64,000 bases of DNA from an uncultured Candidatus Saccharibacteria bacterium. GTDB lineage: Bacteria; Patescibacteriota; WWE3; UBA101185; 2-01-FULL-41-18. Location of the stretch: NCBI GenBank assembly GCA_964636285.1, contig CAZWQF010000004.1, positions 3,666 through 67,665 on the forward strand, in the 5' to 3' direction. The notes below the pieces were generated by a model. That model did not search any database. It was given only the letters and a program-made list of their open reading frames with translations, and was not told the origin of the DNA. Both the position numbers and the translations under genes were made by a program. Shown here one piece after another: positions 13,276 through 48,529 of this stretch (position 1 is its first letter; each line of letters opens with the position of its first letter).

Positions 13276-13282
13276 AGATTCT

Positions 13283-13331
13283 GCCCGGGAGACTAAAACC
13301 CAAGCACCGCGCAGGTTTTAGTCTCCCGGGC
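13283..13331. repeat. Palindromic dispersed repeat, type A complete copy (GCCCGGGAGACTAAAACCC - 12 nt - GGTTTTAGTCTCCCGGGC)
   Basis: Perfect 18-19 bp inverted arms in the recR-dnaX intergenic spacer; same motif recurs at 16615, 21167, 43036, 43133 and 63473. Confidence 0.8.
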
Positions 13332-13332
13332 A

Positions 13333-16577: not shown

Positions 16578-16614
16578 AAAGTTACTCTAAGGACTGAAAA
16601 CTAGGCACTGCACA

Positions 16615-16632
16615 GGTTTTAGTCTCCCGGGC
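16615..16632. repeat. Solo right arm of type A dispersed repeat (GGTTTTAGTCTCCCGGGC)
   Basis: Exact match to the right arm at 13314-13331. Confidence 0.7.
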
Positions 16633-16646
16633 AGAGGTTATGTCCA

Positions 16647-21123: not shown

Positions 21124-21352
21124 ATTCTGGACGGGTAACGAAAACCCGTGTGTTTAGTGCATTTCTGTCCGGGAGACTAAAACCCACTGCTCATCACATT
21201 TCTTAGTTTGGGTTTTGATTTGGATGGTAGCTCTCAGCTTGCTTTATCTTACATTTTTTATTCGTGAAACAAAAGGGGCTTGAAAAGTTTAGTTAATAAG
21301 ATTTAGAATCACCAAAACCGAAAGTCCTTTTTTGCTTAAGGAGAAAGCAATA

Positions 21353-32524: not shown

Positions 32525-32587
32525 AATACACTAATATGTATTGTTATAACAGATGTTGGTGATAGATGCAAGGTTTTGAGGGCATTT

Positions 32588-32640
32588 CTGGACGGGTAAT
32601 GAAAACCCAGCTACAGTGCGGGTTTTCATTACCCGTCCAC
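32588..32640. repeat. Palindromic dispersed repeat, type B complete copy (CTGGACGGGTAATGAAAACCC - 11 nt - GGGTTTTCATTACCCGTCCAC) preceded by GCATTTCTG
   Basis: Perfect 21-bp arms; equivalent to the TIRs of the 21127-21945 element with no cargo. Confidence 0.8.
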
Positions 32641-34600: not shown

Positions 34601-34982
34601 TCATAAACAAAAAGTTTTTGAAAACAATAGGAATTAAGTCTTCTAGAACAGGGCTGATTGAAAAATTTATTATCGAATGGAAAATAATGATTGATACAAC
34701 AACCTGCAAAGCATAAAAGAGTACATTTCTTGGAAAGAACCTTCTGATTACCATACAAACAAAAATTGACAAAGCACAACCCAAAGTTGCAGATCCAAAG
34801 TGTGCTGAGAGGAGCAAGTCAGACATAATGCCTCCAAAAAATGCTGTTTTAATAGAAAGTTCAAAATTTCCAAGAAACATCAATACCAGCGCAAACATTA
34901 AAATCACTGCAATTGCAGGAAAAACGCTTTGTAGCAACGAAAGAGCTGTGAGTGTAAGTGCCAAAATCAAGTATTTTTTCAT
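34530..34982 (-). CDS. mreD: Rod-shape determining protein MreD (polytopic membrane protein)
   Basis: Hydrophobic, about 150 aa, located between mreC and mrdA. Confidence 0.5.
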   Translation of the reverse strand: MKKYLILALTLTALSLLQSVFPAIAVILMFALVLMFLGNFELSIKTAFFGGIMSDLLLSAHFGSATLGCALSIFVCMVIRRFFPRNVLFYALQVVVSIIIFHSIINFSISPVLEDLIPIVFKNFLFMIVLFPFSYTIYEIFKTSGIRRNF

Positions 34983-35782
34983 TACTTTACTTTCCCTGAA
35001 TCAAGATCGATAAAAACTACTTCAAGCTTGTTTAAATCTACCAACGTCTCAAGTTTTGCTTTTTTGATAGGCTCCGTGGGAGCTGTTGTAACCTCCACAA
35101 CTTTTCCTGCAATTAATCCTGGCTTAAAAACGCCGTCTTGACCGCTCGTAACTATGATATCCCCCTGAACAACTTCCTCATCCAGTAGCACCTTATCCAT
35201 TATAATGGCGGTTCCAAAGCTTCCGGTTGTTATGCCTTTTGCCCTACCCTCTTTGCTTTGATCCAGAACAGCAACATTCAACTTTGGAGAGGTGACAAAA
35301 ACTACTGTTGCTCTGTGTGCAAACACATCAACAATTGATCCAACAAGAAAATTCTTAAATAAAACTGTTTGACCTGTTTTTAAGCCGTCTTCAGATCCTT
35401 TATCTATCAAAACTTCTGAATTCTGGTTACTAAAAGGAATCCCTATAACTCTAGCTAATAATAGATTTTGGGCGGAATTTTCGTTTTTGACTCCGGCTTG
35501 TTCTCTTAATGTTTTGTTCTCAAATTCAAGCTCTTTTAGCTTTGCAATTTTTGACTCTAAGTCATAAGTTTTTTCAAGGAGTTCAAGATTTTGGTTTCTG
35601 AGGCTTTTTAAATTCGTAAAAAAAGAAAGAGTATTTTCTGCGTTACCTTTAATTTGGAAAAGCCCGTATTGAAAAGGATTGGCAAGGTATTGAGTAAAAT
35701 CCTGAAGCACGCTAAAAACACCGGTATATCCGATTACAAAAATGATAATGGCTGCAAGAAGGTACTTAAACGAAAGCCTCAC
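34982..35782 (-). CDS. mreC: Rod-shape determining protein MreC
   Basis: N-terminal TM, coiled coil (LESKIAKLKELEFENKTLREQ), C-terminal beta domain. Confidence 0.8.
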   Translation of the reverse strand: MRLSFKYLLAAIIIFVIGYTGVFSVLQDFTQYLANPFQYGLFQIKGNAENTLSFFTNLKSLRNQNLELLEKTYDLESKIAKLKELEFENKTLREQAGVKNENSAQNLLLARVIGIPFSNQNSEVLIDKGSEDGLKTGQTVLFKNFLVGSIVDVFAHRATVVFVTSPKLNVAVLDQSKEGRAKGITTGSFGTAIIMDKVLLDEEVVQGDIIVTSGQDGVFKPGLIAGKVVEVTTAPTEPIKKAKLETLVDLNKLEVVFIDLDSGKVK

Positions 35783-35909
35783 TCCATACTTTTATATCAA
35801 TTAAGACCTGAAGTAAACCCTAAGGTAGTTTGGTAAGCTAGTTTGCTTTTTTTGTGGAGAGCTTTAAAATCGATAAACCAATCCAGTCTTACAAAGGAGA
35901 CATAGAGAA

Positions 35910-36344
35910 ATGAGCGGACAAATGGACGTGCAGGAACTTAAGAGGATTATTGAGAAGAAGTGTCTTGGTCCTGTTCAAGATGCTCTTTACCATCTTGATG
36001 GATCCAAGAACAACCCTGCAACGGTAGGTCTTGCACAAAGGTTGGCCCTGGCAATTAATGCAGATCCATCTGATGACGATCGAGAGTCTGATCAGGTAAA
36101 GGAAACGCGCAGGCTAATCTTGGTAACACTCAAAAACGTTGTCTCATGGCTTGAGAGTGCAGAACAGACCATCAAGCAGAATGGTGCCTGGAAGGAACTA
36201 TCCGAATGGGTTCGGGAACTTGCAAGGCAGCACCTTGCTGTGATTCGGTCTTTCCGGGAAGACTTCTATTTGAGGACCCAGGCTCGAACAGAGCTTGACA
36301 ACTTGGTTTCCAAGCTTGAGAAGTTAGCCACTTCCAAGAAGTAG
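35910..36344 (+). CDS. Hypothetical helical protein (144 aa), first gene of four-gene insert
   Basis: SD AAAGGAGACA upstream; GC-rich; no TM. Confidence 0.5.
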   Translation: MSGQMDVQELKRIIEKKCLGPVQDALYHLDGSKNNPATVGLAQRLALAINADPSDDDRESDQVKETRRLILVTLKNVVSWLESAEQTIKQNGAWKELSEWVRELARQHLAVIRSFREDFYLRTQARTELDNLVSKLEKLATSKK

Positions 36345-36362
36345 AAACCCACCCCATTCGCC

Positions 36363-36740
36363 TTGCCCCAATCAGATATGGAGGATGAAATGGCTTTACC
36401 CAAGGCTGAGGAGAAAAAGAAACTTGATGCTCTGAAACAGCTTGCAGAGGCATCGAGCAAAGTTCTCAATAAAGTGACCCAACGGCTCGCTCAAATCAGA
36501 GAGGACCGTGCAAACGGAATTCTTCAAGTCAAGGGTGTTGGGGGAGTTACCCATAACCTTCGAGACCTTCAGACCCAGTTAGCCAGCCATATTGCGTCAC
36601 TTGTGGCAACCGTGGCTGAAGACGACTCACTGGAAGTGGTGAGAACAAGAAATTCGAGGCTTGGACTTCTGAGGGCAGCAAACGGCCTGATTGACGAGAC
36701 CATCAAGGAGCTCAAGTCATCGCCAGTTAGGTCTACTTAA
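36363..36740 (+). CDS. Hypothetical helical protein (about 120 aa; alternative start at 36378)
   Basis: Follows gene 1 within 20 nt; terminator hairpin at 36777-36823. Confidence 0.45.
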   Translation: MPQSDMEDEMALPKAEEKKKLDALKQLAEASSKVLNKVTQRLAQIREDRANGILQVKGVGGVTHNLRDLQTQLASHIASLVATVAEDDSLEVVRTRNSRLGLLRAANGLIDETIKELKSSPVRST

Positions 36741-36776
36741 GCTTAGCTCCTTATATCCCCCTGCCCCACTACCGGC

Positions 36777-36823
36777 CTCCGGACTTGTACCCAATATGAG
36801 TCTGGAGGTCTTTTTCATTTTCA
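36777..36823 (+). terminator. Terminator hairpin CCTCCGGA-CTTGTACCCAATATGAG-TCTGGAGG then TCTTTTTCATTTTC
   Basis: Stem-loop plus T-run; the loop sequence recurs at 37841-37875. Confidence 0.5.
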
Positions 36824-36893
36824 AAAATAGTACTTTGCTTGCTAAATTTGTTAAAAATATTACAATCTTAAAAAAACAAAGGAGTGCAAACCA

Positions 36894-37334
36894 ATGTCAA
36901 AACAAACTTTTTTGCAACTCATAGAAGAAGCAAGAAATACTCTTCTAGGTTTGAATGTTTCAGCTTTTGGCCAAAAGTCCGTTGTAAGAAATCATGGTTT
37001 AGTAGTAACTGTTTTGAACGCACGGAAATACAGGAAAACAGACGCTGACCACACACTTGATGTTGAACGTCAGGTTATTACTTCGCTGAAGCAACTTCAT
37101 AAGCAAATTGAAGCAGTACTAGAAGCTTCTACAACTGCGCAAGAAGCCTCAAGCGCTTATCAAATTGTAGAGGCTACTATTAGGTTTGTGGTGAATCCTC
37201 TACAGGAAGGTGTAGATAAAAGATACAAGCTTTGGCCTGAATTTGAGAATCAAAAGCAGATGTATCAGGCACTCTTAGCTCAGGCAAAGAACAAAAGCGT
37301 GTCTCTTCCACTCACAGATTCTGACCTTGATTAA
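36894..37334 (+). CDS. Hypothetical helical protein (146 aa)
   Basis: SD AAAGGAGTG upstream. Confidence 0.5.
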   Translation: MSKQTFLQLIEEARNTLLGLNVSAFGQKSVVRNHGLVVTVLNARKYRKTDADHTLDVERQVITSLKQLHKQIEAVLEASTTAQEASSAYQIVEATIRFVVNPLQEGVDKRYKLWPEFENQKQMYQALLAQAKNKSVSLPLTDSDLD

Positions 37335-37343
37335 GGAGTTAAC

Positions 37344-37733
37344 ATGCCACTTCATCCAGAAGCACTCTTGTGCCGTAGACAAATGGAAGTTTGTCTAAAA
37401 AGGTTCTCAGTCAATTGGAATTACGTCATAGATTATTCAAGTAGGGATGGGAAAAGCAACGCAAACCGAGCAGAAACAGTCAACAGAATGCTGTCGGAGG
37501 CAACCCAGAACTTAAATCAAGCAATTCAGCATTTTAAACTGTTGTTAGGCTCTGCTGCAGTTTCCCACTCTGATATTAAATGGGTCTGGGAACACGGTTT
37601 AAAGCCTACCTTCCAAACCGTATTGGGGAGTAAGGCCAAAATTGTGGTGCAGGAGGAGAATAAAGCTAAGTTCGACGAGCTTGTAAGTCTTTGCAGCGCC
37701 CGCCTGAACTTCCGTATTCGACAATTGGAATAG
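37344..37733 (+). CDS. Hypothetical helical protein (129 aa)
   Basis: SD TAAGGAG upstream; 9-nt spacing from the previous gene. Confidence 0.5.
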   Translation: MPLHPEALLCRRQMEVCLKRFSVNWNYVIDYSSRDGKSNANRAETVNRMLSEATQNLNQAIQHFKLLLGSAAVSHSDIKWVWEHGLKPTFQTVLGSKAKIVVQEENKAKFDELVSLCSARLNFRIRQLE

Positions 37734-37840
37734 GATGTAGGGTCAAAGATGTGGTGATCAGAGAATTGAAAACATTCAAATAGCAAATGCAAAGTGCCTC
37801 CCCTCAAGGCATCAGCCCGTTCGGTAAACCAAATATATCA

Positions 37841-37875
37841 GCCTCAGGACTTGTACCCAATATGAGTTCGGAGGC
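37841..37875. repeat. Second copy of the CTTGTACCCAATATGAGT hairpin (GCCTCAGGA...TTCGGAGGC), between convergent genes
   Basis: Same 17-nt loop as 36785-36801 flanked by complementary arms. Confidence 0.5.
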
Positions 37876-37909
37876 TGGTACTACAACAGCCTTGGTCAAT
37901 AATATGAGT

Positions 37910-38980
37910 TTATGAAGAACCAGCCTTTACCCTCTTTAACAAATCCAAATCTTCTAAAACAATAGAGCAACCTCTTACCACGCAGGTCAGTGGATCCCTT
38001 GCTATTACAACCGGCATCCCAGTCTCTTTTGCCATGAGTACATCAAGACCTCTAATCAAGGATGTTCCCCCAGCAAGAGTAATTCCACTTTTCAAAATAT
38101 CAGCAACCAATTCTGGAGGTGTCTCCTCTATTGCATCCTTCACAGCATTAATAATTATGTAAACAGGGTTTCTTATTGCTTCCCTAATCTCCGCGGCATT
38201 AACTTCAATGGATTTTGGAAGCCCAGTTTTTAAATCCCTCCCCCTTAACATTGCAGTCACACCTTGGTCATTTTCAAAAGGATACGCGTTTCCAAGTAAA
38301 ATCTTAATTTCCTCAGCTGTCCTATCCCCAACCAGCATGTGGTACCTCACCCTAGCGTAGTTGATGATTTCCTGGTCAATCTCATCCCCTGCCACCCTCA
38401 CGGATTTGTTAGTTACAATTCCTCCAAGCGAAATCACTGCAATCTCACTTGTACCGCCTCCCATATCCACAATCATGCTTCCAATAGGCTCAGAAATAGG
38501 AAGCCCAGAGCCGATTGCCGCGGCCATAGGCTCTTCGATCAAATAAGCCATTCTTGCCCCCGCGCTCAAAGAAGCATCCATGACTGCTTTCCTCTCCACT
38601 TCAGTGATACCAGAAGGTACACCCAAAACAACCCTTGGCCTTGGAATTTTTGGAAATCCTGAAGGAGTCTCATGCACCTTTTTAATAAAATAGGAGAGCA
38701 TTTTTTCAACCGAATAAAAATCGGAAATTACGCCATCTCTAAGAGGTCTAATTGCAGAAATAAAAGAAGGGGTTTTGCCGAGCATTCGTTTTGCTTCTAT
38801 GCCAACTGCGTGAATCTCTTTTGTCTTTTTGTGGATAGCTACAACGGTTGGTTCCCTAATGAGTATGCCTTTACCCCGCACAGAAACGAGCGTGTTTGCA
38901 GTACCCAAATCAATACCCATGTCATGGGAAAACATTGAAAAAAATTTGTCGAGCATGTTCATTAGCGAGTCTATCATCAC
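37910..38980 (-). CDS. mreB: Rod-shape determining actin homolog MreB
   Basis: GIDLGTANT phosphate-1 motif, DMGGGTSEIAVISLGG phosphate-2. Confidence 0.9.
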   Translation of the reverse strand: MMIDSLMNMLDKFFSMFSHDMGIDLGTANTLVSVRGKGILIREPTVVAIHKKTKEIHAVGIEAKRMLGKTPSFISAIRPLRDGVISDFYSVEKMLSYFIKKVHETPSGFPKIPRPRVVLGVPSGITEVERKAVMDASLSAGARMAYLIEEPMAAAIGSGLPISEPIGSMIVDMGGGTSEIAVISLGGIVTNKSVRVAGDEIDQEIINYARVRYHMLVGDRTAEEIKILLGNAYPFENDQGVTAMLRGRDLKTGLPKSIEVNAAEIREAIRNPVYIIINAVKDAIEETPPELVADILKSGITLAGGTSLIRGLDVLMAKETGMPVVIARDPLTCVVRGCSIVLEDLDLLKRVKAGSS

Positions 38981-43029: not shown

Positions 43030-43035
43030 TTAACA

Positions 43036-43151
43036 GCCCGGGAGACTAAAACCCGCACCACTACTAAATTATCAATTTCTGGTTCTGCTCTGCGGGTTTT
43101 CATTACCCGCCCCCCCCCACCTTATGCCTATTGGGTTTTAGTCTCCCGGAC
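43036..43151. repeat. Composite dispersed-repeat locus: type A left arm (43036-43054) ... type B right arm (43092-43111) + C9 tract ... type A right arm (43133-43151)
   Basis: Exact matches to the arms at 13283/13314 and 32620; nested arrangement in the GH1 to tRNA-Thr spacer. Confidence 0.75.
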
Positions 43152-43225
43152 AGAAATTCTTAATTCCATTTATATTTGCAGTTTGCTAGAATAACGCAGG
43201 AACTTTAGAAACATTGAAAACATTG

Positions 43226-43301
43226 GCCCAGATAGCTCAGATGGTAGAGCACATCCATGGTAAGGATGGGGTCCCGAGTTCGATTCTCGGTCTGGGCTCC
43301 A
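43226..43301 (+). tRNA. tRNA-Thr (anticodon GGT), CCA encoded
   Basis: Cloverleaf folds by hand: acceptor GCCCAGA/TCTGGGC, D-arm GCTC/GAGC, anticodon stem CATCC/GGATG with loop ATGGTAA, T-arm CCGAG-TTCGATT-CTCGG. Confidence 0.85.
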
Positions 43302-43306
43302 GAACA

Positions 43307-44020
43307 ATGGCTAAAACTAAGCTTTTCATTTTTGACCTTGATGACACTTTAATTGCAACAAACTCTATTTTTAAACGAAAAATGCACGAGGCATCTTCCC
43401 TACTTTCGACCAAACTGAACGAGCCAGAATCTTCAATTTTTTCTCAAATCGAACAAGGACTCTCAAATGCAAGGCCAACTCAAAAGGTCAATCCAATAAA
43501 ACTTTGGGCACATGCACTTGATTCGCTCCAAAATTCGTTTCCAAAAATTTCTTTTGACGATAGAAAGCGAATGGAAAACCTCCTCTTTCAGATCTATAAA
43601 GAGGTGCCAGATGTGTTTGAAGGGGCGTTTGAACTCCTCCAAAAGATCAAAGAGGAAAAAATACAAACGGCCATTTTATCGCACGCAGAAACCGAATGGA
43701 CACACTTTAAGCTCAAATCTACTGGTCTTTCTAAATACTTTGATTCAGTTCACACAGCTAATGTGGACCAAGAAAAGACAAGTGCTAATTGGCAAAGTGT
43801 TGTTGATAACTCGGGATTTTCCAATAATGAATGTGCAGTAATTGGAGACAACATTACAGGAGACATCATCTCTGCCAGCAAAATAGGGATTAAAAAACTA
43901 GTTTGGTTTGATAATAAAGATAATTGGAGCGTGCACAGACATGGAGATTTGCCTGAGGGGACAATAATTGTAAAGGATTTGAAAGAAGTTACTTCCCTCC
44001 TTGATTGTGGACAATTATGA
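43307..44020 (+). CDS. HAD-superfamily hydrolase
   Basis: Motif I FDLDDTL at the N-terminus, C-terminal GD motif; start placed after the tRNA (the ORF-track start overlaps the tRNA). Confidence 0.75.
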   Translation: MAKTKLFIFDLDDTLIATNSIFKRKMHEASSLLSTKLNEPESSIFSQIEQGLSNARPTQKVNPIKLWAHALDSLQNSFPKISFDDRKRMENLLFQIYKEVPDVFEGAFELLQKIKEEKIQTAILSHAETEWTHFKLKSTGLSKYFDSVHTANVDQEKTSANWQSVVDNSGFSNNECAVIGDNITGDIISASKIGIKKLVWFDNKDNWSVHRHGDLPEGTIIVKDLKEVTSLLDCGQL

Positions 44021-44069
44021 TATGTTATAGAATCTTAGTCGCGCACAGCACAAAGTGCGTTGATGTTGT

Positions 44070-44154
44070 GCCAGGTTCGGATAGTGGCAATTCCAAGTGA
44101 CTGTAAATCACTTGCCTTCGGGCTTCGCTGGTTCGAGTCCAGCACCTGGCACCA
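44070..44154 (+). tRNA. tRNA-Tyr (anticodon GTA), long variable arm, CCA encoded
   Basis: Acceptor GCCAGGT/ACCTGGC, anticodon stem AGTGA/TCACT with loop CTGTAAA, variable hairpin GCCTTCGGGC, T-arm GCTGG-TTCGAGT-CCAGC. Confidence 0.85.
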
Positions 44155-44244
44155 AAAATCAAATAATTGTAATTCTCATTTTGACATTCACATTGTTTCA
44201 CTATAGGATATGGCAACCACCATCGATCGAGTAAAGGAGAGGAC

Positions 44245-44953: not shown

Positions 44954-45584
44954 AGAAAAAACAAGAAATTTAAAAGCAAAAAGGAATTCGACAAAGACCC
45001 ATGCACCCGCCAAATAAGGCGGTTTTTGTTACCCAATAAGCAAAATGTATTAATAGACCTATAGTTTACAAATTGAGTATACTAAAGTATAATCCGTACC
45101 ACAAAGGAATTCCTCCTTTATCCCTTAACTAATTAGAGTTATGGGTTATCACATTGCCGAGATGGCAATTGAAAGGATGGACGAGATGTCCACGTATCGT
45201 AAAGTTTTGAAGAGCGAAGGTGGTCATTGACCAATTGGATCAACAAAGGTGTTGAAAATGGATTGATCACGCAAACAGAGGCTCTACAGTTCAAGGGCGA
45301 CTTGGCCAAGTACGTGTAGAGGTCCTCTAAACCACAGGTCAATTCTCCCCGCCTGTTCCCCGCCCATAGACACGGTTCATCGCTATACGCGCTGAAGCCA
45401 AGCCAAACCCCAAAAGGATTTGGTCCGTGTCTCCCCTAAGTAAATCAAAAAATTTGGTTTGTTTAGGAGAAGAAACGACCTAGAAATAGGTCGTTTTTTG
45501 TGCTCTCCCCGCTCCCCCTTCGATTTTCAAATATTTGTCTTTAGAGTTAAAATCTCCCTCAACAATCAAAAGAAAGGCGTGCGA

Positions 45585-46178
45585 ATGGCAAAAACATTCG
45601 GGATCTTGGGTACATCGCTCTTTGCGCTCTGCATGACCGTTATTGCAGGTGTGGCATTTTTCAAAGAGTGGATGTTTGAACACCCAGATTTGACGTTCAC
45701 AATGGTCACTACGTGTCTCACACTCTCGATTGTGGGCATGGCGATGATGTTTGGTGGATTCCATCTTCATAACAGGACTTCCAAAAAACCCTTCGCCCCA
45801 AACGAGAAGCTCATGAAGGAAGCATTCCAGAGATGGAATGAAATCCTTGTTGAGAGTGGGTTCTTTGTACTTGAATCGAATCAGGGCAAAGGGCCAAACG
45901 GTGACTACAACGCGTACTTTAGGTACGTGGTAGGAAGAGAACCCTTTCATGTAACCCTGACGGTTGGCTCAGTACTGGCAAACGGTTACTATGCAAGGAA
46001 CGTGGCGCTAAGCCCTGCACTAACACAGCTGATCAAGGAGATGAAGCGTTTCAATTTTTACGATGAACAAATTGCCATCGTGAAAGTTGGTGACAGAATG
46101 GTCCGCATGTACGACTTTTTTGTGGATCGGTTTGTGACAGGTTTCACGGTGGTTGTTCGATTTCAGATTGGAAATTAA
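45585..46178 (+). CDS. Island cassette protein A: N-terminal 2-TM anchor + C-terminal domain of about 120 aa (198 aa)
   Basis: SD AAAGAAAGG before ATG; two hydrophobic helices; hairpin terminator after the stop. Confidence 0.55.
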   Translation: MAKTFGILGTSLFALCMTVIAGVAFFKEWMFEHPDLTFTMVTTCLTLSIVGMAMMFGGFHLHNRTSKKPFAPNEKLMKEAFQRWNEILVESGFFVLESNQGKGPNGDYNAYFRYVVGREPFHVTLTVGSVLANGYYARNVALSPALTQLIKEMKRFNFYDEQIAIVKVGDRMVRMYDFFVDRFVTGFTVVVRFQIGN

Positions 46179-46321
46179 GCCCATAATCCCCCCCCCGCTT
46201 GAGAGTGTGCATTTGCCAGAAGCCTTAAGATAATGTCATAGGCAAAGCAAGTGCACACTTTTTCATAAATTGATATAAAATATTTCACACCAAAAGAAAG
46301 CATTCAAAAGAGAGGTAACAA

Positions 46322-46519
46322 ATGAACGCAAGATCTTTGTTGAAGGTTGCTGGAACCTTGAGCATGCTGCTTGGGGTAATAGGCTTTTGCATTGTTCTGT
46401 GGGTGTCATCAAAATCTGGCGTGGGTCCAGGGGCAGCTCTGGAACTAGTCGTTTGCATTGTGATGGTTGGGGTTGGCTACGTTGCATTCACAGAAGATAC
46501 CGAGGTCAGGCGTAATTAG
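46322..46519 (+). CDS. Island small 2-TM protein B (65 aa)
   Basis: SD AAGAGAGG before ATG; two hydrophobic helices. Confidence 0.45.
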   Translation: MNARSLLKVAGTLSMLLGVIGFCIVLWVSSKSGVGPGAALELVVCIVMVGVGYVAFTEDTEVRRN

Positions 46520-46738
46520 TCTTGAGCTAGCGCTTGTCCTGACAACATCTGCTCATCAACTACGGGGAAGGCCAAAAGCCTTGGGCGTAAGCCTGACAGC
46601 CCAGATTCGCAAAATAAATCTAGGCTGTCCCCCTCTCTCACTTTTCCCCAAAGCACTTTGTATTTGACTACCACTATTTAACTTATTGCTATAAAATACC
46701 CGCAACAAATAAACCTAAAAACCTTAAGTGGAGGTGTC
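46520..46738 (+). promoter_or_regulatory. Island intergenic module copy 1 (GGGGAAGGCCAAAAGCCTTGGGC, hairpin GACAGCCCAGATT...AATCTAGGCTGTC, GTCCCCC, TTGACT...TGCTATAAAAT promoter-like box)
   Basis: Shares its 5-prime half with the copies at 47745, 49007, 51326 and 51967. Confidence 0.5.
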
Positions 46739-46984
46739 ATGCGAACCGGATACCATAGAGGTACTTTTCACCTTAAGTATGGGTGGTCAGAAGAGCTAGG
46801 CAGAACATTTATTGAGGTCCACGATCACGTACCGCCATCTGAGGTACTGATTCTGGCACTCCAGCTTGGGATAGCTCAATACCCAGATGACCCAGACGAT
46901 CCGATTTTGGCTGTGAAGCTGCCAAAAAAGGAAAAGCCGGAACTTATCAGATTCTCAGCTCTAAAGAAACGACTGAGGATCTAG
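46739..46984 (+). CDS. Island small soluble protein C (81 aa), family 4
   Basis: SD GGAGGTG; C-terminal ILAVKLPKKEKPELIRFSALKKRL matches LLFVQLPGSDKPEFLSAAQIRDRM of 51110..51325. Confidence 0.5.
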   Translation: MRTGYHRGTFHLKYGWSEELGRTFIEVHDHVPPSEVLILALQLGIAQYPDDPDDPILAVKLPKKEKPELIRFSALKKRLRI

Positions 46985-47144
46985 GGAGGTACTGAATGCG
47001 CAAAAAGTCCATGGCATAGCGTATGGTTGGAATGACGAATGGAAAGCCTTAATCCAACAGCTTAACCAGCTATCTGGAGTTGAGGTGGTACACTATGTCC
47101 CATCAAACGAGCCCAACAAGGCTTAGTAAAAAGGAAAAAGGCAG

Positions 47145-47744
47145 ATGGACACCAAATTGTGGAACCGACTTCTAGGCGTCTTTGGCGTTTTGTTTGGGGT
47201 TGTTATTCTGATCACAACGCTTCAGCTCACTGAGACAATAGGCGTTGGAGCAGTGTGGGTTCTGATGCTCTTGCTTGGGGTGGCTTGCGTATGGATGGGC
47301 ATCACTGGACTTAGATACAAACCCAAGGTGCTTGTGGAACCGAGTGACAAAGTCCAAGCACTTCATAGGCTTGGAGTTGCACGGATCAAAAGCGCAGGAG
47401 TGGGAGCGAATGTGCTTGGAGATAGGACAAGGTGGTGGTTTGGCCAAATCCTTACCCCAGTCCATTTTCAAGTTCACGGGCGCAATTTGACCCTCACTCT
47501 CTCGGCTGGCCCCAATGCACTTGGAGAGCACAGGGTTTTTGATAACACTGAAGCACTTCCTGCCGATGTTGTGAGTGCCGCCAATCAACTGAGACACGTG
47601 TTCCCAAACCCCAAGTTCATTGTGGAGAGGTCAGGACAAAGGCTCAGACTGAAGGTAATACTCCACTCCGATCAAGAATGCATGCTCTATCTAGAGGATG
47701 AATTCTTCCACGAACAGTATGGGGCAAACTTCTCGCTGTTCTAG
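47145..47744 (+). CDS. Island 2-TM membrane protein D (199 aa), family 1 (LGEH ... RLKVILHSD ... MLYLED domain)
   Basis: SD AAAAGGAAAAAGG; two N-terminal TM helices; C-domain alignable to 50488..51096. Confidence 0.55.
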   Translation: MDTKLWNRLLGVFGVLFGVVILITTLQLTETIGVGAVWVLMLLLGVACVWMGITGLRYKPKVLVEPSDKVQALHRLGVARIKSAGVGANVLGDRTRWWFGQILTPVHFQVHGRNLTLTLSAGPNALGEHRVFDNTEALPADVVSAANQLRHVFPNPKFIVERSGQRLRLKVILHSDQECMLYLEDEFFHEQYGANFSLF

Positions 47745-47947
47745 ACCCCAAACTTAGCACCCAGACTGCGCCGTAAACAAATTGTGGGAGGATAGAAATA
47801 TCTTGAGCATAAGCTCGGCAACCCAGATTCATAAAAAAAATCTAGGCTGTCCCCCACTACTACCTTCTAAATGATTTTGTTCATTTTCATTTTCTTATTT
47901 TTAGAATTACAATCCGTATTAACAAGACCTAGTTTGTGGAGGAAACC
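47745..47947 (+). promoter_or_regulatory. Island intergenic module copy 2 (hairpin CAACCCAGATTC...AATCTAGGCTGTCCCCC, then TTTTCATTTTCTTATTTTTAGAATTACAATCCGTATTAACAA leader)
   Basis: Conserved with the modules at 49007, 51326 and 51967; TACAAT -10-like element. Confidence 0.5.
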
Positions 47948-48523
47948 ATGAAACGACTATTTGGTGTGTGTGAATTTCTGTTGGGGTTAGGAATCGTCAT
48001 CTATCTGATCCTGTTACCAAACAGGGAAAGCATAGACCCTCTACTCCAAGTCTTCACTCTTGTAGTAGGAATGACACTCGTTGTAGTAGGTTCAATCTAC
48101 CTCTTCATCCCTGAGTCAAACAACCCGCTCAGACAGCATGAGCTAAGCATCCAGAACCTGATTGCAACAGGCCTTTACAAGTTTGTGGATCAGTCTGTGC
48201 AAGATAGGGATGGGAATTGGCACAGCCTCGTCCAATTCAACAGTGGATTAACGAGCCTTCTTGGAGCAGTAGCAACCAAAAAGCAACAGCTGCGCAGACG
48301 ATTAATACAGGGAAATATCAGCCTGCTTCCAAGCGACATGCTTGCCATCGCGGAGCAAACATCAAAGCATTGGCCAGCATGGATTTCCATGGAAAAAGGA
48401 ACCTGGGGAAATGTCTACTACCTGGAGTTTGTGATCGCAAAAGGCAAGCTCTGGGAAACAGTACTTGTGTTCCCCATCAGGGGTGCGGACTACAGCGCAC
48501 TGCTTAAGCACATCGAAGGATGA
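47948..48523 (+). CDS. Island 2-TM membrane protein E (191 aa), family 2 (YLILLP N-terminus)
   Basis: SD GGAGGAAACC before ATG at 47948; paralog of 49202..49849. Confidence 0.55.
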   Translation: MKRLFGVCEFLLGLGIVIYLILLPNRESIDPLLQVFTLVVGMTLVVVGSIYLFIPESNNPLRQHELSIQNLIATGLYKFVDQSVQDRDGNWHSLVQFNSGLTSLLGAVATKKQQLRRRLIQGNISLLPSDMLAIAEQTSKHWPAWISMEKGTWGNVYYLEFVIAKGKLWETVLVFPIRGADYSALLKHIEG

Positions 48524-48529
48524 CGCCTA

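Follow-up and report, generated by a model that had tools for sequence, protein, structure and literature searches.

Four small orphan genes inserted at the mreB/mreC junction of a WWE3 genome

In the window studied here, 64 kb (64,000 nucleotides, nt) of a genome of candidate division WWE3 (Katanobacteria, Candidate Phyla Radiation, CPR), the cell-shape genes mreC and mreB are separated by a block of four small genes that we call g1 to g4; all coordinates refer to this window. The block is an insertion into an otherwise contiguous mre locus. The reading that we favour, and to which we give an even chance, is that the block is a lineage-restricted, fast-evolving accessory gene cluster in the mreB/mreC junction, made of two hairpin-terminated units that encode small helical proteins of a binding type. 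The products of g1–g4 are new protein families; the phenomenon is a known one, in which orphan genes with their own promoter and terminator accrete between genes that are adjacent in relatives. A link of the insert to MreB or MreC is possible.

In relatives, the usual order of the locus is def followed by a contiguous mreB-mreC-mreD-pbp2. mreB and mreC lie within ~110 nt of each other in 17 of the 20 WWE3-like loci that carry both genes, which bears out the claim of an earlier, sequence-only reading of this DNA that the mre genes are normally contiguous. The top MreB matches among the GTDB species representatives are WWE3 metagenome-assembled genomes (MAGs) with 81% and 77% identity (loci L002 and L021, respectively), and in these closest representatives the genes are contiguous, with gaps of 25–28 nt. 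Other arrangements occur. In one WWE3 MAG (L003; MEVN01000004, 4322–6280), mreC-mreD-pbp2 is inverted with respect to mreB, and the genes are divergent and 121 nt apart, while in another locus (L019) 7.6 kb separates mreB from mreC. A third (L017; CAZPYT010000027.1, 3566–5144) has another insert at the junction, 1.6 kb long, encoding three co-oriented small paralogues with N-terminal transmembrane helices; as this insert differs from ours, the mreB/mreC junction seems to take insertions repeatedly. None of the 20 WWE3-like loci encodes a relative of g1–g4 (tblastn). The possibility raised earlier, that the four genes are universally conserved in the lineage and match an annotated family, is thus not borne out, there being neither relatives in these loci nor a significant family match. 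A literature search on mreB in WWE3 returned nothing relevant.

The insert consists of four non-overlapping + strand open reading frames (ORFs), each with a Shine-Dalgarno sequence, that occupy 35910–37733. They lie between mreC (34982..35782, − strand; Pfam MreC, 1.8e-30), now apart from mreB, and mreB itself (37910..38980, − strand; Pfam MreB_Mbl, 8.8e-133), so the opposite orientation and the ribosome-binding sites read from the sequence earlier are confirmed by the ORFs and the Pfam flanks. g1 (35910..36344, +) encodes a soluble orphan of 144 residues with five predicted helices. g2 (36390..36740, +) encodes a basic protein of 116 residues (isoelectric point, pI, 9.8), predicted to form an antiparallel three-helix bundle, and its exact product is present in the protein collection. 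g3 (36894..37334, +) encodes an orphan of 146 residues with core-like codon usage, and g4 (37344..37733, +), a basic orphan of 129 residues, starts 9 nt after g3, with which it is probably translationally coupled. The earlier gene list holds for the four ORFs, with a correction to the start of g2. This is the ATG at 36390, with GGAGG 6 nt upstream, rather than the TTG at 36363, because the spacing of GGAGG, the 116-residue product in the collection and the alignment of the N-terminus with that of a homologue, P0007 (MALPKAEEK in g2, MAISKAEEK in P0007), all agree on it.

Similarly, the description of the insert as GC-rich is valid for g1–g2 (48–49% GC) but not for g3 (39.5%) or g4 (44%), the window standing at 41.8%. 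The codon usage of g3 resembles that of core genes, whereas g1, g2 and g4 are atypical and lean to an orphan island at 45.4–53.5 kb. By codon position, the insert ORFs follow the order GC1 > GC3 > GC2. All four products are hydrophilic, with pI values of 7.8–9.8, and no transmembrane segment was detected in any of them (Kyte-Doolittle 19-residue mean, maximum <0.75). The layout of the insert is identical in an independent 7.8-kb Logan contig (L001) and in a 132,681-bp contig to which all four genes are assigned in the protein collection (sources NCBI and Logan).

The four proteins are all singletons at 90% identity in the protein collection, and for g1, g3 and g4 no homologue beyond self was found among 5.8 billion proteins. 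For g2, an exhaustive HMMER search of 1.84 billion representatives gave one real homologue, P0007, with 114 residues and 50% identity (E 4.9e-23). The g2 homologue sits on a 1.5-kb Joint Genome Institute (JGI) contig, L103 (Ga0490039_034813, sample 3300045388), which reads mreC (−), a 158-nt spacer, the g2 homologue (+), a 12-nt spacer and a further gene, X3, of which 145+ residues are encoded before it runs off the contig end. X3 is a diverged homologue of g3: the two are colinear (BLASTP E 0.005, ~22% identity), and in a shuffle test the score gave z = 5.07, with none of 1000 shuffles attaining it. Since homologues of g2 and g3 are adjacent beside mreC on L103, the g2-g3 pair predates the split of the two species. 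L103 has neither g1 nor a hairpin, and the 153-nt hairpin/promoter spacer between g2 and g3 is found only in the window genome.

A sister species is represented by short contigs (L104–L107) with ~81% DNA identity to the window in housekeeping genes, and we infer that L103 belongs to it from a JGI sample common to L103 and L106 and from the identity levels. MreC on L103 is 74% identical to the MreC of the window over 163 residues, while on the contigs assigned to the sister species identities are 95–96% for MreB, 81–85% for Def and at least 90% for Fmt (a common 90%-identity cluster). Set against these 74–96% for neighbouring genes, the 50% of g2 and ~22% of g3 reveal that the cassette proteins diverge far faster. 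For g2 and its homologue, identity by codon position is 0.61/0.68/0.36, with a nonsynonymous rate (dN) of 0.47 and a saturated synonymous rate (dS); the N-terminal part of mreC has, for comparison, a dN of 0.17. Judged by this substitution pattern, g2 is protein-coding and under purifying selection, and the concern that the ORFs might carry no coding signature does not apply to it.

The sequence-only reading had also proposed that the insert is made of two two-gene modules, perhaps duplicates of one another. Paralogy of g1 with g3 and of g2 with g4 was rejected by every comparison: no similarity by BLASTP (E > 0.04), probabilities of only 12% and 0.2% by hhalign, and z values of only 0.25 and 1.50 in the shuffle test (g1/g3 and g2/g4, respectively). 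Because this similarity is missing and g2 and g3 are adjacent in L103, we reject the reading of the block as two copies of a two-gene module; what survives of the proposal is an apparent split into two transcription units here, with a terminator hairpin after g2 and a promoter-like site before g3. The conserved unit is g2-g3, which cuts across the proposed modules, because L103 holds both genes side by side without g1 or the hairpin.

Two further observations concern mreB on contigs assigned to the sister species. On L104 (MreB 95%; 1508–1606), the mreB stop codon is the exact point where homology to the window ends; the following 99 nt lack an mreC start and contain another, perfect 14-bp hairpin. 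An insert after mreB is thereby suggested for L104 too, in a stretch that is too short to use. On L106 (JGI Ga0490039_005137, 1–1995), the mreB sequence breaks off near residue 197 and continues into high-GC DNA with a gene for a VapE-like protein. A mobile element inside the sister mreB was considered here and rejected, and because the composition switches abruptly to high GC at the junction, L106 is most likely a chimeric contig and was treated as such, not as an insertion.

Within the insert, a 21-nt identical core, GGACTTGTACCCAATATGAGT, occurs exactly twice, at 36781 and 37847, with a chance expectation of 0.00 (100 shuffles). Each occurrence folds (RNAfold) into a hairpin with a 16-bp stem, including four G·U pairs, and a 5-nt loop, CCCAA. 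Hairpin copy 1 (36774..36810, +; covariance model 67.3 bits) is followed by TTTTTCATTTTC, and copy 2 (37837..37879, +; 66.9 bits) lies between the convergent g4 and mreB. The folding energies are −24.8 and −25.3 kcal/mol for copies 1 and 2, with z values of −5.5 and −4.2 on the + strand and ~0 on the − strand; as the − strand folds no better than shuffled sequence, the hairpin is a structure at the RNA level in the sense of g1–g4. The repeat noticed earlier is therefore real, although the identical 17-nt loop ascribed to it is mostly stem. Nor do the hairpins bracket the insert, as had been thought: they are direct repeats 1066 nt apart, placed after g2 and after g4, and so flank g3-g4.

Both copies are stable, GC-containing, sense-strand stem-loops at the end of a unit, a feature of intrinsic terminators. 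A T-run, TTTTTCATTT, stands directly 3′ of copy 1, which scores as an intrinsic terminator and is probably that of the g1-g2 unit, while copy 2 is followed directly by GGTACTACAAC and has no U-run. Compared with one another, the copies keep their pairing at 31 of 32 cells; one pair has changed on both sides in a compensatory manner (G-C to A-U), and three have switched between G·U and G-C. All six helix differences fall within the 18 lower-stem positions and none within the 19 apical positions, a clustering that by our own estimate would arise under uniform mutation with a probability of (18/37)^6, or ~0.013. The hairpin has no Rfam match, even at E values up to 10, and when the two copies were used to build a covariance model, neither the 64-kb window nor 26 related loci yielded another one. 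We also considered whether the hairpin is a widespread element and rejected this: its 17-mer has 0 exact matches in IMG/VR, and its 21 matches in JGI metagenomes, none of them with the stem around it, are what chance could produce for a 17-mer.

The window contains several other hairpin families. Long perfect palindromes (CCCGGGAGACTAAAACC...GGTTTTAGTCTCCCGGG) are dispersed at 13279–13332, 16592–16633, 21125–21186, 32586–32639 and 43032–43055; they sit at the ends of housekeeping operons, one of them directly 3′ of pbp2, and look like repetitive extragenic palindromic (REP) sequences or bidirectional terminators. A near-identical pair of terminator hairpins (CTCCCCGGTA..TTTTTGCCGGGGAG with a T-run) lies 766 nt apart at 60718–60753 and 61484–61519, and a 57-nt hairpin repeat, stable on the − strand, is present at 46580, 47802 and 49036. 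Because the window holds these other local families of terminator-like hairpins, repeated terminators are a general trait of this genome, not one special to the insert.

On the promoter side, TTGATATAAAAG at 35789..35800 (−) ends 8 nt before the GTG start of mreC, reads TGnTATAAA and matches the extended −10 element (TGnTATAAT). The 12-mer is identical, at identical spacing, in the window and L103, and is missing before mreC in L002, in which no gene separates mreC from mreB. It is thus a candidate extended −10 promoter, which would yield a near-leaderless mreC mRNA. The divergent intergenic region between mreC and g1 (35783..35909) is partly conserved, by alignment, with the spacer between mreC and the g2-like gene of L103; the conserved blocks include CTTTTATATCAA, adjoining mreC, and a TAAAAT box (35865–35870, +) that precedes g1 in the window and the g2 homologue on L103. 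Two further candidates are a promoter-like TTGCTA-16-TACAAT (36839..36866, +; 9/12 matches) located 28 nt upstream of g3, and a small GC hairpin with a T-rich tail (37795..37811, −; TGCCTTGAGGGGAGGCA CTTTGCATTT) that may be the mreB terminator.

AlphaFold2 (AF2) predicts g2 as an antiparallel three-helix bundle (predicted local distance difference test, pLDDT, 85.9; predicted template modelling score, pTM, 0.74) and g1 as five helices, all-helical, at low confidence (pLDDT 60). The expectation that all four proteins are helical therefore has AF2 support for these two, g1 and g2. A Foldseek search of the PDB with g2, one of the checks suggested at the outset, returned generic three-helix bundles only (BAG, syntaxin Habc, spectrin and designed proteins; template modelling scores 0.6–0.7, best E 0.089). 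A fold search of BFVD with g2 gave no significant match, all Foldseek E values in the PDB and BFVD being >0.08. As the three-helix bundle is a generic fold, membership of g2 in the BAG, spectrin or Habc families cannot be claimed.

Sequence searches of g1–g4 against Pfam, NCBIfam, PADLOC, PHROGs and the PDB gave nothing at threshold, in line with the earlier view that the proteins have no recognisable domains and, by Kyte-Doolittle, no transmembrane segments. Family assignments were rejected, because the matches, among them syntaxin Habc (E 0.007) and designed repeat proteins, stay below threshold and amount to noise from helical or coiled-coil sequences; for g4 there is a sub-threshold match to Bles03 only (19.3 vs 23.1 bits). 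In the JGI data, P0007 carries the name ‘EzrA’ (PF06160), an assignment that we also rejected: the match reaches 15.2 bits against a cut-off of 39.6, and g2 has no EzrA match. EzrA is a protein of ~560 residues with an N-terminal transmembrane anchor and several spectrin-like repeats, whereas P0007 has 114 residues and g2 has 116 and no transmembrane segment. Viral relatives of g1, g2, g3 and g4 were not found on IMG/VR contigs.

These observations are compatible with the following course of events. The cluster would have entered the mreB/mreC junction before this WWE3 species and its sister species diverged, in their common ancestor, and its content would since have turned over. The insertion would have uncoupled mreB from mreC-mreD-pbp2, and mreC appears to have gained the extended −10 promoter. 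In this genome, the cluster would form two sigma-70-type transcription units that run against the direction of the mre genes. g1-g2 would be transcribed from the divergent mreC/g1 spacer as far as hairpin 1, acting as an intrinsic terminator with its U-run, and g3-g4 from the promoter-like site in the 153-nt g2-g3 spacer as far as hairpin 2, which is most likely a 3′-end or termination structure that would prevent antisense read-in to mreB. The products are small, soluble and neutral to basic, the two modelled are helical bundles, and, with no match to a known family, no catalytic domain is recognisable; binding to other macromolecules is therefore their most probable mode of action. Since they diverge so rapidly and occur so patchily, they look more like the products of accessory genes that are weakly constrained or of a conflict type than like parts of the core cell-shape machinery, and a core Mre role is probably absent.

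Several points weigh against this account of an accessory cluster. The retention of g2-g3 beside mreC in two species, with a common divergent spacer, could mean functional coupling with the elongasome. The promoter-like sites in the region equal the chance expectation in number, and hairpin 2, lacking a U-tract, is no more than a candidate terminator. The arrival of the block is not explained by a mobility gene among the ORFs scanned, nor by a flanking repeat or a target duplication. The story of gene turnover, in which g1 and the hairpin were gained or lost, rests on two genomes, because there is one related cassette, on a truncated 1.5-kb contig, and the membership of L103 in the sister species of L104–L107 is inferred from the sample shared by L103 and L106 and from identity levels.

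Such coupling would be explained if the proteins modulated the elongasome in a lineage-specific way, as small helical adaptors for MreB, MreC, MreD or PBP2 whose genes share the divergent promoter region, and hence their regulation, with mreC. In one form of this idea, the g2 bundle might dock on the actin-fold ATPase MreB as BAG domains do on the nucleotide-binding domain of Hsp70. In its favour, homologues of g2 and g3 occupy the same place beside mreC in the sister species, the divergent spacer is partly conserved and g2 is under purifying selection; the best, non-significant, Foldseek neighbours of g2 (BAG, syntaxin Habc and spectrin repeats) and the sub-threshold EzrA match of P0007, with its JGI name, although membership itself is rejected, point the same way. 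Nevertheless, we think it unlikely. No other WWE3 locus examined, the closest GTDB representatives included, has these genes, which evolve at least 3-fold faster than mreC; the fold is generic and its matches all have E > 0.08, the EzrA score falls well short of its cut-off and is not shared by g2, and adjacency in two sister species is equally expected from vertical inheritance of an insertion. A bolder version makes g2-g3 the core, supplemented by g1 and g4, of a clade-specific WWE3 family of elongasome regulators: three-helix-bundle proteins that would bind MreB, again as BAG domains bind Hsp70, or MreC, and be divergently co-regulated with a leaderless mreC, the apical hairpin being a protein-binding autoregulatory site. 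This version strikes us as quite improbable. As unlikely as elongasome modulators in general is a selfish or conflict module, whether as one or more toxin-antitoxin pairs or as a phage-defence or anti-defence cassette that occupies a permissive intergenic site and evolves in an arms race. Such a module would account for the small genes in tight pairs (9 nt between g3 and g4, 12 nt between the g2 homologue and X3) with their own promoter and terminator, the extreme divergence between sister species, the atypical composition of g1, g2 and g4, and the patchy distribution, and the genome holds other such modules: a PIN-domain (VapC-like) toxin gene lies at 59631–60011 (Pfam PIN, 1.3e-15), so bona fide genes of the toxin-antitoxin type exist elsewhere in the window. 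However, PADLOC, Pfam, NCBIfam and PHROG models of toxins, antitoxins or defence proteins are not matched, an acidic, antitoxin-like partner is missing (all pI 7.8–9.8), no DNA-binding or nuclease motif was recognised, and there are no relatives on IMG/VR contigs or in BFVD.

A role of the hairpins in recombination, as sites of an attC-like, IS200/IS605 or REP type that would make g3-g4 a mobilisable cassette, is very improbable. Two direct copies 1066 nt apart do flank g3-g4, the fold is strand-specific with a conserved apical sequence and a lower stem that varies while preserving its pairs, and the g2-g3 spacer with copy 1 is missing from the sister contig. Against this, the 64 kb contain two copies only, the 26 related loci and IMG/VR none, and JGI metagenomes only context-free chance matches; a Pfam scan of the insert, its two flanks and 20 ORFs at 41.7–62.6 kb showed no integrase, Y1 transposase or REP-associated tyrosine transposase (RAYT); the G·U pairs favour RNA and not the single-stranded DNA used by such systems; and copy 1 has the U-run of a classic terminator. 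Moreover, g3 is not a recently moved cassette, because its orthologue occupies the same position in the sister species. That the block is an assembly artefact, or non-coding DNA with fortuitous ORFs, would be suggested by the origin of the sequence from a MAG and by the clearly chimeric L106, broken inside mreB. We consider this extremely improbable, since the layout recurs identically in the 132,681-bp contig and the separate 7.8-kb Logan contig, the adjacency of mreC and a g2-like gene recurs in another sample, four consecutive ORFs preceded by Shine-Dalgarno sequences fill one strand, the ORFs follow the order GC1 > GC3 > GC2, and the substitution pattern of g2 is that of a coding sequence.

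Elsewhere in the window, the orphan island (45400–53600) comprises about ten + strand genes for proteins of 135–239 residues, several with an N-terminal transmembrane helix, which look paralogous and have a raised GC3 of 0.43–0.61; none of its genes has a Pfam match. A repeat upstream of these genes is present as the full 76 nt at 47875, 49118 and 51416, and as a 40-nt core also at 45525 and 52073. Between the insert and the island, a 975-nt segment (43181–44155), consisting of a haloacid dehalogenase (HAD) hydrolase gene between two tRNA genes, is 98% identical to 4984–5941 of L105, with flanks at 79–81%, and may reflect recent recombination or strong conservation.

If the accessory cluster is what it appears to be, it offers a clean case of orphan genes accreting at a permissive junction in reduced CPR genomes, in which a housekeeping operon, mreBCD-pbp2, can be broken apart and its mreC supplied with a new promoter, and in which orphans can drift to 22–50% identity while their neighbours keep 74–96%. 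It would gain greater importance only if the proteins act on MreB or MreC. To our knowledge, the cell-shape regulators of the uncultured, ultra-small CPR bacteria are not known, and in that event the confident three-helix-bundle model of g2 would make it a tractable candidate.

The insert shares traits with several known systems. In integrons, each cassette has an attC hairpin at its 3′ end, and an intI integrase and an attI site lie nearby; both hairpins here follow gene groups, with a stem that relies on G·U pairs and no integrase among the proteins scanned, which cover part of the window. IS200/IS605 and REP/RAYT elements have many dispersed copies and an associated Y1 transposase, and an element of this kind was rejected, as the covariance model finds two copies in 64 kb and none in 26 loci, with no transposase among the proteins scanned. 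Small, closely spaced gene pairs, an own promoter, patchy distribution and fast evolution are common to the insert and type II toxin-antitoxin systems, from which it differs in that its proteins lack similarity to toxin or antitoxin families (no recognised member among g1–g4 by Pfam, NCBIfam or PADLOC), have neutral-to-basic partners and contain no recognised DNA-binding domain. With the helical regulators of the cytoskeleton (EzrA, ZapA/ZapB, GpsB and DivIVA) and with BAG, g2 shares a predicted three-helix bundle of ~110 residues, encoded beside mreC/mreB, but without a significant sequence or structure match, a transmembrane anchor or WWE3-wide conservation.

The hairpins resemble intrinsic or REP-like terminators in being GC-rich stem-loops at the 3′ end of a unit, copy 1 with a U-run, in a window that holds other repeat families. 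They differ in that copy 2 has no U-run, there are only two copies, and the apical 19 nt, which include two adjacent wobble pairs (U·G and G·U) as well as the CCCAA loop, do not vary between the copies, whereas the lower stem has changed with its pairing kept. This conservation of the apical hairpin hints at a sequence-specific reader beside plain termination. As for the insert as a whole, phage ‘morons’ are reportedly (Hendrix and co-workers) autonomous promoter-gene-terminator units between two genes that are adjacent in relatives. Unlike them, the insert lies in a CPR chromosome, inside a housekeeping operon, with four genes in two units and no viral relatives found; like them, it stands between genes that are adjacent in relatives, with promoter-like sites, terminator hairpins, a partly deviant GC content and no obvious role for its neighbours.

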